Shown here piece by piece: positions 2,658 through 5,249 of a stretch of DNA of 64,000 bases. This DNA comes from an uncultured delta proteobacterium (lineage in GTDB: Bacteria; Desulfobacterota; Desulfomonilia; Desulfomonilales; Desulfomonilaceae): NCBI GenBank assembly GCA_963789265.1, contig CAWBKB010000004.1, positions 256,001 through 320,000 of the forward strand, written 5' to 3'. The notes below the pieces were generated by a model. The model had not been told where the DNA came from, did not search any database, and saw nothing but the letters and a program-made list of their open reading frames with translations. Both the position numbers and the translations under genes were made by a program. The stretch's first letter is position 1. Each line of letters starts with the position of its first letter.

Positions 2658-2966
2658 CTACCCGGAATGTACCTCTTCATCTGACTCGATGACGCAGCAG
2701 CAAGCGGAACTCTTGCGCCCTAACGCTGCGTTGATCACTGCGGAGGCGCACCCGACGCCGGACCGTACCGACAACGCTTCGGCAGGGCAGTTTCGGGCGC
2801 ATGCGCCGCATTCCATGCATGCGTCCGGTTCATCAATGCCGACGCATCCGTTGTGCATGGAAAGCACAGCTTGAGGGCACACCTGGAGACACATACCGCA
2901 ACCTGTGCATTTAGCTTCATCAAGCTTCAAGGTTGCCACATTCTTTAAGTAAATCAGCCGACCCAT
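2658..2966 (-). CDS. hgcB: Mercury methylation 2[4Fe-4S] ferredoxin HgcB
   Basis: CTGCGMCLQVCP and CMECGACARNCP cluster motifs, GVGCA, C-terminal CCC; lies directly downstream of hgcA. Confidence 0.95.
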   Translation of the reverse strand: MGRLIYLKNVATLKLDEAKCTGCGMCLQVCPQAVLSMHNGCVGIDEPDACMECGACARNCPAEALSVRSGVGCASAVINAALGRKSSACCCVIESDEEVHSG

Positions 2967-2979
2967 GGTTGGACTCCCT

Positions 2980-4164
2980 TCAAGCGGCCACGCGGGATCC
3001 GATCCAGAGGATGACCCCTATGCATGCCGCGGCGATTTCAAGCGGCACAGCCCATCCCATCTCTTTCTTAACCCCGGAAAGCGAAGTGTAAGTTGACGCG
3101 CCGGTAAAGTTCATTGCCAGATACGCGCTAATTGAGGGGACCAGAAAGAGCCAGGCGAGGACCTCGAGCCTGCCCGACCAATCTGCAAAAGCCGCGCTTC
3201 CTAGGAGAGCCGGGACTAACGCCGCTGCCAAGCCCAGAACGAACCCCTTGAGCGCAAAAGCTCTGCCGGGCAGCCACGGCAAGAGAATAGGAGTCAAAAT
3301 TGTCCCTGCCACCAGAGCCGCGAGAAGAGCCCACGCCGCGAATAAACCATGATCGAGGGCGCCTCGCCAGAACCCTTCTGAAGCTCTCAGACCTCCGGCC
3401 AAGAAAAACACGATAACGAGTATAAGGGCCCACTTTGCCGCGGTCACCAGTTCAACTGGAACTACAACGATTCTTTCCCATAGAGTAAATGTCTTTCGGC
3501 GCATTTCCGGAGTGGCCCTCAGTCCCGAGTCAATGAAAGCCGCCAAATCGGACGACCGCACCGGCCCGTATATGACTCTGAAACCGGATCGCCTCTTCAC
3601 TTCGTGGGCCGCGACGCCCGGCGCAGCCAATTGAGGAAGAATAACACGCCTGTGCGACACGATCTTAGCGAGGCCGGACGATTCGAGTCGCCCAACTAGT
3701 TCGTCCGTACCAAATGTCCCCTTGCCCGCCGCGCACCACACATTGACCCCATCAGTGTCCAGTACCAGAATCCATGCGTTCCGACCCGGTAAAGCCTGTC
3801 TCAAAGCATCAAAGCTCATCTTGTAGTTTGCCGTCACCAGTACCGGCGCGGTGCCGTCCGGCTGGCCGAGAGCATAGAGCCCAGGATCGACCATGTAATT
3901 CATCCGGCCGATATTCCACCTTGCCTTTATGCTTCCCCACCGATCCGTCGGCGTCAGATCCGCGGACACCCTCGGCAAAGTTCCGACTGTCGTAAGAATG
4001 GAGCCGGTGAGAAACGGCTGCTCGAGTCGAGGAAGGCTCGCCTGAGCCTTTTCTCTGGGCGGTCAGCACGAGAGGGTTGGAGTGGACGTCGAATCCGACA
4101 CAGTGCATGAATCGGAGGCCGCAGCGCGCCCTCGGTTGTCACAGTCGCATGCGCTTTGTTCCAT
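2980..4164 (-). CDS. hgcA: Mercury methylation corrinoid protein HgcA with Cys-rich N-terminal extension and predicted selenocysteine (C33-U34), 394 aa
   Basis: Cap-helix NVWCAAGKG, VTANYKMSFD, C-terminal TM helices, AMNFTGASTYTSLSGVKKEM. The frame extends upstream of the track's TTG 3978 through one TGA (4063-4065) to ATG 4164, which is preceded by AGAGGAG. Confidence 0.93.
4033..4050 (-). promoter_or_regulatory. Bacterial SECIS-like hairpin of hgcA
   Basis: Minus strand: UGA + 12 nt + AAGGCUC / AGGC / GAGCCUU, a perfect 7-bp stem with G at loop position 2. It can be extended by GAG/CUC across an internal loop. Confidence 0.8.
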
Positions 4165-4303
4165 GGAAGAAACTCCTCTATTTTGTGTTCACAATCCTGA
4201 TCCGCACGGAAAGGTCCCATCTGCAAATTTCATGACGAAGGCACATTGGGCACGCTTCACATTTCCTTGAATTTGTTCCGCGACCTCTCCTTGAGAATAC
4301 TGC

Positions 4304-4780
4304 TTACTGGGGCTCTTGCCAATCAAAGCCGTTTTCAGCCAGAAGAGACCTCACCTTTTGATAGGTGCCTGCCACTATCCTGGGACACCTCGTCGGCGGA
4401 ATGCTGGGATCATCGAGTGTAATGTCACGGCACCTGATTCCGCCATAAATTTCACCATACTTCCCGGCAAACCAATCAACGAGCTCCTGGATCATGCACT
4501 TCATCTTGGGATTATCCTGCTCGTCAGATGAGCCTCTTCCTGCATACAAACCCAGCAGGCAGGCCCCTCCGGTAAGAGCCCCACAAGTCTCACCCGAGAA
4601 TCCGATTCCACCGGCCAGCGCGGACACGGCCTTGATAAGATCCGGATCGATTTTGCCCTGCGCCTCCAAGCCGGTGAACAGGAGGATCTCGCTGCAATGG
4701 AATCCTTGCTGCGCAAGCTCAATCATCCTCAGTTGCTCGGTAGTAAGTGAATTGACTGATGTAGCGAGGTTCGTTGGCAT
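4304..4780 (-). CDS. C-GCAxxG-C-C family putative redox-active protein (DVU_1555-like)
   Basis: GFHCSEI...GETCGALTGGAC...IRCRDI...RCP; AAGGAGG SD. Confidence 0.85.
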   Translation of the reverse strand: MPTNLATSVNSLTTEQLRMIELAQQGFHCSEILLFTGLEAQGKIDPDLIKAVSALAGGIGFSGETCGALTGGACLLGLYAGRGSSDEQDNPKMKCMIQELVDWFAGKYGEIYGGIRCRDITLDDPSIPPTRCPRIVAGTYQKVRSLLAENGFDWQEPQ

Positions 4781-4853: not shown

Positions 4854-5249
4854 TTACTCCCGAACACCTCGTCCATCGGTGAGACCTGACCCTGAAAGTC
4901 CAATTTCTCTGAGCGAGCGAAGGACAGGTGCGCGGCCTGTCAACAGTTCGATCAAGGCGCTCAGAGCTACCGCGTCAACCCAGCATTCAATGTTTTTCCC
5001 TCGCCTTTCCATTTTAATGAGTCCTGCTTGCCGGAGCTCCTTTATGTGATGAGAGACAGTGGAAAGCGTTATAGTCAGTTCTTGCCCCAGTTCCCCGACG
5101 TAACGTCGAGCCATAGCTTCGGAGGTGCACTTTGTGCCCGGTGGGCAACAGGAAATCAGGCGCAAAAAGATGTCGAGGCGATTGGGATTGGACAGCGCCT
5201 TGAACATTTCAGCGAAACGGCGGACTTCTTCGATACGATGATTTGACAT
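4854..5249 (-). CDS. ArsR/SmtB family transcriptional repressor (hgcA-linked)
   Basis: FKALSNPNRLDI...VGELGQEL...STVSHHIKELRQAGLI...RRGK; extra Cys cluster SCCPPGTKC. Confidence 0.92.
   Translation of the reverse strand: MSNHRIEEVRRFAEMFKALSNPNRLDIFLRLISCCPPGTKCTSEAMARRYVGELGQELTITLSTVSHHIKELRQAGLIKMERRGKNIECWVDAVALSALIELLTGRAPVLRSLREIGLSGSGLTDGRGVRE

Follow-up and report, generated by a model that had tools for sequence, protein, structure and literature searches.

The protein pair HgcAB produces methylmercury, which is the mercury species that builds up in food webs. The present work deals with the gene of one member of this pair, hgcA, located in a stretch of 64,000 nucleotides from an uncultured delta proteobacterium of the family Desulfomonilaceae (assembly GCA_963789265.1, contig CAWBKB010000004.1, positions 256,001 to 320,000 of the forward strand), hereafter the window, coordinates below being positions within it unless a contig is named. 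From the letters of the window alone, a preliminary description had claimed that this HgcA is a selenoprotein with an N-terminal extension, hidden from gene callers, in which a cysteine precedes a selenocysteine (Sec, U) and in which the Sec codon is followed by a hairpin serving as selenocysteine insertion sequence (SECIS). As a feature of HgcA, this has been published since 2022/2023. Haft and Gwadz (bioRxiv 10.1101/2022.07.06.499078) report most HgcA proteins to be selenoproteins with a Cys-Sec (CU) dipeptide in an N-terminal extension, a form present in 20/20 hgcA genes in their set, with the founding genes from strain ND132 and from Geobacter sulfurreducens PCA among them, and state that reference data for correct HgcA calling were given to the NCBI Prokaryotic Genome Annotation Pipeline (PGAP); the preliminary description had rightly credited them with the prediction. 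HgcA (NF040863) also figures among the CU selenoproteins of a 2026 review, which cites Haft and Gwadz together with a 2008 metagenome study. A 2024 biochemical paper goes no further on the matter than to say of certain homologues of hgcA and hgcB that they “may be selenoproteins”; the same paper establishes by co-purification that HgcA and HgcB bind one another. No experimental test of the HgcA selenocysteine was found in the full-text literature searched, which leaves out most subscription journals, so that such a test may exist.

Besides HgcA itself, the closest described systems are found among proteins that handle mercury with mobile pairs of chalcogen ligands. Cooper et al. propose, by analogy with MerA, that the terminal Cys pair of HgcB picks up Hg(II) and passes on Hg(II) or CH3Hg+; this pair (Cys94/Cys95 in ND132) is supported by mutation, the double mutant losing 95% of activity. 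Haft and Gwadz (10.1101/2022.07.06.499078) further point out CU in organomercury-related proteins.

Compared with the HgcA proteins of Haft and Gwadz, the product of the window belongs to the same NF040863 family and likewise has a Cys-Sec dipeptide, with one UGA ahead of the start codon annotated formerly; its 394 residues lie within their range of 363-400, the genome has the Sec machinery, and homologues without Sec are packed with cysteines. Two differences appear, namely (i) the motif around Sec, PCUGP being called perfectly conserved in their 20 examples, whereas it is SCUPP here, and (ii) the SECIS element, of which the passages of theirs that were consulted give no description. The alignment of their supplementary Figure S7 may already show motif variety. 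As such, the gene of the window is a well-supported ordinary member of a published group, and the additions made here are minor: SCUPP as against PCUGP, the description of the SECIS, and, in the one relative of the family that is without selA, a form packed with Cys.

The hgcA gene and its product

The full coding sequence of hgcA (2980..4164, minus strand) runs from an ATG at 4164-4162 to a TGA stop at 2982-2980 and is open throughout, its sole interruption being an in-frame TGA at 4065-4063. Translated with this TGA as U, it gives a HgcA of 394 residues followed by the stop, with a 62-residue N-terminal extension that comprises C6, C8, C20, C33 and U34. A Shine-Dalgarno-like AGAGGAG (4173..4179, minus strand) lies 8 nt upstream of the ATG, and GGAG-type purine runs precede the equivalent ATG in five other members of the genus (L022-L026). 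The preliminary description had placed the ATG, the AGAGGAG, the in-frame TGA, the hairpin and a TTG at 3978 correctly, all on the minus strand, and the extension it had written out is identical to the translation.

With genetic code table 11, the listing of open reading frames (ORFs) contains for hgcA only a 332-aa ORF (2980..3978) that starts at this TTG (3976..3978, minus strand), read here as internal Leu63 of HgcA. The acceptance of TTG 3978 by a homology-guided caller is explained by the NCBIfam model of HgcA: NF040863 matches the product with 467.6 bits (cut-off 275) over residues 64-392, corresponding to profile positions 2-324 of 325, i.e., the profile begins at residue 64. The extension is hidden as far as table 11 is concerned, which gives only the TTG ORF, but on the whole less so than the preliminary description implied, the form being published and the PGAP reference data having been added.

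The sequence identifies the gene as hgcA, which codes for the corrinoid member of the mercury-methylating pair. The product also matches Pfam PF03599, and residues 141-149 read NVWCAAGKG, which agrees with the HgcA cap-helix motif, N(V/I)WCA(A/G)GK with its Cys ligand. Positions N141, V142, W143, C144, A146, G147 and K148 are invariant among the 29 sequences of the protein alignment A2, and a pattern search picked G[IV]NVWCAA as a conserved HgcA pattern. Cys144 (TGC, 3733..3735, minus strand) is equivalent to Cys93 in ND132 numbering, for which the role of cap-helix ligand is taken from published accounts. In an AlphaFold2 model built on A2 (mean predicted local distance difference test, pLDDT, of 76.3; predicted template modelling score, pTM, of 0.69), the C-terminal part forms five helices (228-256, 265-297, 303-321, 329-356 and 362-393), the number by which a published account defines the HgcA membrane domain. 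Sequence matches in the Protein Data Bank (PDB) are to corrinoid iron-sulfur proteins (CFeSP) only, with 2h9a_A aligned to residues 89-212 at E = 8.1e-14, and no HgcA structure was found there by sequence search. CFeSP has the homologous corrinoid-binding domain (2h9a_A, PF03599) but differs from HgcA in being without the membrane domain, the cap-helix Cys ligand and the Sec arm.

The genome itself is a draft-quality assembly of 9 contigs, 95.57% complete with 6.07% contamination, and contains one hgcA only. Two copies occur in three genomes of the same genus (G002, G003 and G006), one being 72-75% identical to the gene of the window and the second about 65-67%; this second type matches from residue 29-35 onward, and a further genome, G004, shows the second type only (65%). 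In G006, one copy (L026, G006:C9:274289-275471) is split near its 3' end: residues 1-340 and 334-394 are matched separately, and in A2 the tail diverges. The cause is a frameshift, an erroneous assembly or decay of the copy; the other hgcA of that genome is without the TGA.

Evidence for selenocysteine at residue 34

Five independent lines of comparative and modelling evidence, namely (i) the Sec machinery, (ii) conservation of the site, (iii) the hairpin, (iv) translation downstream of the UGA and (v) predicted structure, identify the UGA of hgcA as a true Sec codon. The gene very probably encodes a 394-residue selenoprotein read from ATG 4164, its UGA at 4065-4063 being decoded by SelB and tRNA-Sec through the 7-bp SECIS; incorporation of selenium into HgcA is a prediction drawn from comparison among genomes. 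Mechanistically, SelB and tRNA-Sec would be recruited by the hairpin, whose G-containing tetraloop begins 19 nt past the UGA. The preliminary description had made its reading hang on the presence of sel genes, on UGA aligning with UGA or Cys in homologues and on the hairpin, and on all three counts the selenoprotein reading came through.

As for the machinery, the genome carries selB (386.3 bits), selA (594.5 bits), selD (359.6 bits) and a tRNA-Sec (71.3 bits, anticodon tca). The selD gene (L010, contig C7:193442-194362, minus strand) itself encodes a selenoprotein, with one in-frame TGA in a classical SGUAAK site.

Conservation of the site was read from a six-frame search over 61 genomes, i.e., that of the window and 60 relatives, in which many HgcA matches extend upstream through exactly one TGA, those of relatives spanning residues 1-394. 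In total, 110 hgcA loci were considered, 30 from this search and 80 from a scan with one genome per species (the best 80 of at least 599 matches); four of them (L047, L093, L094 and L127) were dropped for masked N or contig ends, which left 106 usable loci in a biased sample, made up mostly of Syntrophales-like and further Thermodesulfobacteriota, whose kin are not independent. The Sec34 codon (TGA, 4063..4065, minus strand) aligns with TGA in 53 of these and with Cys in others, the remaining classes being 31 loci with CC runs (at least 2 Cys in the N-terminal region, assigned by pattern on the upstream open frame and possibly including untranslated residues), 14 with other Cys and 8 with no Cys. 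Two loci first counted as Sec-type, L115 and L126, were false, their UGA being the stop of an upstream gene with a Met start after it, and were reclassified. In A2, the Sec column is occupied by Cys in L035, L043 and L046. The preceding codon (TGC, Cys33, 4066..4068, minus strand) is the conserved partner of Sec, with Cys directly before U in 45/53 Sec-type loci, and an in-frame start codon stands upstream of the UGA in 52 of the 53.

These counts dispose of the notion that the TGA is an assembly or sequencing error or the mark of a decaying gene. The draft quality of the assembly and its contamination speak for such an origin; the same TGA nevertheless recurs in 53 loci, by which this reading is refuted for practical purposes, and the remainder of hgcA is intact and far above the family cut-off. 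Moreover, the TGA at 4065-4063 is unchanged, i.e., replaced by neither TGC nor TGG, in a contig of sequencing run X1 that covers 3736-4265, although X1 may be the source sample and hence not independent; the UGA is outside what runs X2 and X3 cover, and none of the runs listed for this region is of RNA. An error or decay is accordingly given next to no probability.

The candidate SECIS, AAGGCUC-AGGC-GAGCCUU (4033..4050, minus strand), is a perfect 7-bp hairpin as had been described, made up of AAGGCTC (4050-4044), the loop AGGC (4043-4040) and GAGCCTT (4039-4033); its stem begins 12 nt and its loop 19 nt past the UGA, and the DNA encodes K-A-Q-A-S-L. This geometry fits the bacterial SECIS model. 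RNAalifold on 23 relatives predicts the same 7-bp helix, which is 92.1% paired across relatives, with compensatory changes in 4/7 pairs and a covariation score reached by 0/500 shuffles, as against pairing of only 30-46% in slid-partner controls. The helix is kept where the encoded peptide changes (KAQASL to QVQAGL or KTRTSL), which shows that selection acts on the RNA. Among Sec-type loci, 50/53 have a hairpin of at least 5 bp starting 8-18 nt past the UGA, and in 42 of these 50 the loop begins 19 nt past it; the loops read AGGU (18), AGUU (11), AGGC (9) or other variants, with G second in all 47 four-base loops. The 48 nt past the site fold to a mean of -14.5 kcal/mol in Sec forms versus -10.1 in CC forms (Mann-Whitney p = 1.4e-6, the Sec group still containing the two false Sec calls in this comparison). 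At two other Sec sites of the same genome, in selD and in a DsbA-like gene described below, 7-bp stems with G-starting loops are found 13 nt past the UGA. A flanking lower stem, GAG/CUC, seen in the minimum-energy fold was rejected as part of the element, being 36.7% paired.

The stretch between the UGA and TTG 3978 bears directly on the model that a gene caller would propose, in which the UGA would be a real stop, closing an upstream ORF of 33 codons, and the TTG would be the start of HgcA. In favour of that model, table 11 yields exactly the TTG ORF, the NCBIfam profile starts just after it and the hairpin, taken in isolation, is not statistically special. It is opposed first by the way in which the codons concerned evolve: among six genus members, codon-position differences amount to 34/35/120 for residues 35-62 and to 512/230/1255 for the core, i.e., codons 35-62 display a third-position bias like that of the core, which points to coding-type evolution. 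Within them lies a QPF motif, with Q49 and F51 at least 90% conserved in A2. Secondly, no ATG, GTG or TTG occurs from the UGA to QPF in the hgcA of the window, so that ribosomes must arrive from upstream. This last argument holds for the gene of the window and was rejected as a general one, the UGA-QPF interval being free of starts in only 14/53 Sec-type loci; many others have an in-frame GTG within it, in several cases one that spans the junction of the loop with the opening base of the 3' arm of the hairpin (AGGT + G). Thirdly, the AlphaFold2 model places two strands, 52-58 and 61-66, at a pLDDT of about 90 on either side of the TTG at residue 63, and a start there would split this confident strand pair. 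Added to the alignment of Cys with the UGA in other genomes and to the covarying hairpin, these observations make the caller's model highly improbable.

A few observations weigh against translation of the whole extension with Sec, or lighten the evidence for it, in addition to the composition of the locus sample and the pattern-based CC class given above. Evolution is fast over residues 1-33, where the codon positions show 136/109/183 differences; sequence conservation, strong downstream of the UGA, is weak there, so that translation of this part is supported instead by the start, frame and length, which are conserved. The single-sequence fold of a 71-nt stretch (4000-4070) has a z of -0.51, 62/200 shuffles folding as well; the folding check thus came out in favour of the preliminary description for the conserved, covarying helix over relatives and against it for the single sequence, which proves nothing alone, the evidence being the comparison across genomes. 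An Rfam scan of 3900-4200 (E up to 10) returned no family match.

Variation of the Cys-Sec site and candidate roles of the arm

In the AlphaFold2 model, residues 1-41, including C33-U34, have a pLDDT below 50. HgcA is thus predicted to have a disordered arm of approximately 41 residues, in which Cys33-Sec34 stands some 18 residues ahead of the first folded element. The preliminary description had counted C6, C8, C20, C33 and U34 together as a Cys/Sec arm; all are present, and C33 alone is conserved among the extra cysteines, C6, C8 and C20 varying even inside the genus, so that only C33-U34 can be claimed as a functional pair.

Around this pair the motif is variable. PCUGP occurs in just 1/53 Sec-type loci, and the residue after U is P in 31, G in 8 and A in 8 of them; SCUPP hence narrows the motif claim and leaves the membership of the window's HgcA in the CU subgroup unaffected. 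Beside the 45 CU forms, there are two with the reversed order UC (L029 and L088) and six with a lone U and no adjacent Cys (L041, L050, L057, L066, L099 and L109, e.g., SSUG, GSUT or LTUA). These UC and lone-U variants bear on the need for a vicinal pair. Non-Sec forms often have runs of at least 3 Cys or CGCG motifs.

A natural experiment is offered by genome G018, the sole one found in the same family with a Cys-type HgcA (L035), which reads SCCQVSCC at the Sec site. No selA match was found in this genome at 99% completeness; selA is present in 5/5 Sec-type genomes tested. The lineage of G018 may have lost the use of Sec and replaced it by packed Cys. In four genomes of a sister family, selA is present and HgcA is non-Sec. 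Taken together with G018, this implies that the Sec machinery is needed for the Sec form and does not force it.

What the pair does can be approached by analogy. The preliminary description had suggested that a flexible Cys/Sec arm captures Hg(II) or hands off methylmercury, an idea that is plausible. In the form considered here, Cys33-Sec34 would be a soft-ligand site for Hg(II) or CH3Hg+ and partner the Cys-rich tail of HgcB; this reading, put forward tentatively, is given somewhat less than even odds. The arm and the HgcB tail would together bring Hg(II) to the methyl-corrinoid or carry the product off. A soft-metal ligand rather than a catalytic nucleophile is suggested because Cys adjoins U (CU in 45/53, UC in 2), because packed Cys replaces lost Sec and because the tether is flexible and lies beside the corrinoid domain. 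With the HgcB tail, the arm has in common a vicinal pair of soft ligands on a disordered, flexible tail within the same complex; it differs in belonging to the other subunit and the other terminus, in having Sec in place of one Cys, and in that the HgcB pair has mutational support whereas the function of the HgcA arm is proposed. Mercury is similarly passed by mobile, paired chalcogen ligands in MerA, with its C-terminal Cys pair, and in the MerB-like SaoL and the MerT-family selenoproteins, with their CU motifs. Their folds are different, as is the chemistry, i.e., detoxification or Hg-C cleavage versus Hg-C formation, and they have no homology with the HgcA arm, so the likeness would be functional only.

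Two other roles have to be weighed against that of a mercury ligand. Mammalian thioredoxin reductase ends in a Gly-Cys-Sec-Gly tail that forms a selenenylsulfide, and a Cys-Sec selenenylsulfide on the mobile arm of HgcA could likewise be a redox centre that reduces or protects the corrinoid, the cap-helix Cys or the HgcB cysteines. A vicinal Cys-Sec on an arm predicted to be disordered would suit such a role, and thiol-redox genes flank the operon, namely those of a C-GCAxxG-C-C protein and of a DsbA-like UxxC selenoprotein. However, 6/53 Sec forms are the lone Sec, which could not form a vicinal selenenylsulfide as no Cys adjoins it, and the non-Sec forms with Cys runs or CGCG resemble metal-binding packing; Haft and Gwadz also take CU as a metal-contact motif common to MerB-like and MerT-like proteins. 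A redox centre is on this evidence unlikely, if worth keeping in view.

Alternatively, the UGA with its SECIS could act as a translational gate that makes full-length HgcA depend on the supply of Sec-tRNA, the chemistry of the residue being secondary. UGA decoding mediated by SelB is generally inefficient, and the segment ahead of the UGA is poorly conserved, both of which count for a gate, as does the very low abundance of HgcAB, about 0.0004% of total protein, given in the 2024 biochemical paper. Against it, Cys, often several, takes over the site when Sec is lost, which suggests that it is the side chain, and not a stop signal, that is under selection, and the adjacent Cys is conserved in 45/53 loci. 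A gate of this kind is improbable as the main explanation.

Under the preferred reading of a mercury-binding arm, the arm probably boosts efficiency or affinity and is not indispensable, because Cys-packed and Cys-free forms exist naturally. That it is indispensable to HgcA is unlikely, and several facts speak against it: the sister-family genomes with selA and non-Sec HgcA, the 8/106 loci without Cys in the N-terminal region and the 14/106 with scattered Cys only, and the methylation of mercury in lysates by His-tagged ND132 HgcA made in E. coli (2024 biochemical paper). The construct used there presumably begins at the old start codon and is thus without the Sec extension. A more specific and more doubtful proposal is that HgcA with its Cys-Sec arm and HgcB with its Cys-rich tail make up a two-armed chalcogen relay, in which the selenolate would grip Hg(II) at the trace concentrations of the environment or pull CH3Hg+ off the corrinoid.

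Genomic surroundings and significance of the locus

On the minus strand, hgcA is followed after 14 nt by hgcB (2658..2966), whose product matches NF040864 with 116.9 bits (cut-off 99). It is a ferredoxin of the Cys form, with GVGC at residue 73 and CCC at 89-91, and its gene has a TAG stop. Here and in the closest relative, L022, HgcB ends ...SSACCCVIESDEEVHSG before this stop, without a second terminal CC pair; four other genus members carry such a pair (...GSGCC), and the internal CCC cluster is kept here. The known Sec variant of HgcB, GVGU, was not encountered, all 98 loci with a readable GxGC/GxGU site having GxGC and 0 Sec; in the other 8 of the 106 usable loci, no hgcB was found or no such site could be read.

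Directly upstream of hgcA and on the same strand lie two genes that may form one operon with it. The first (4304..4780, minus strand) encodes a C-GCAxxG-C-C protein of the DVU_1555 family (NF045669, 161.2 bits, cut-off 103; PF09719); this copy is complete without any UGA, and NCBIfam gives the related subfamily model TIGR01909 the name “(seleno)protein”. The second, at the head of the same-strand cluster (4854..5249, minus strand), encodes an ArsR/SmtB-family metalloregulator (NF033788, 57.9 bits, cut-off 55).

Convergent with hgcB, a second missed selenoprotein gene occupies 2046-2648 on the plus strand, with its TGA at 2082-2084. Its product is a DsbA-like thioredoxin-fold protein (PF01323, 99.8 bits) in which Sec stands in place of the first Cys of CxxC (DFIUPFCY); with table 11 the start would be TTG 2121, and a 7-bp hairpin lies 13 nt past the UGA. 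The TGA is conserved in all 8 loci where this gene was found (L021-L026, L032 and L033), and DsbA-like selenoproteins are a known class in the table of the 2026 review.

As regards annotation, hgcA in the window should start at 4164, with Sec at residue 34. The SECIS, as a compact and position-fixed hairpin, is usable to call such hgcA genes, and for the Syntrophales-like lineage PCUGP, as published, proves too narrow a motif. The natural series of Sec, UC, lone Sec, CC, CCC, CGCG and none would amount to a ready allelic series. If the Sec arm binds or releases mercury, selenium availability and the Sec or Cys type of hgcA would affect methylation, and constructs made from the old start would represent a truncated enzyme. 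Should the two-armed relay be true, the supply of selenium and whether hgcA is of the Sec, the Cys or the no-Cys type would together set the methylation efficiency of a community, and surveys counting hgcA from the old start codon would miss this functional variable.

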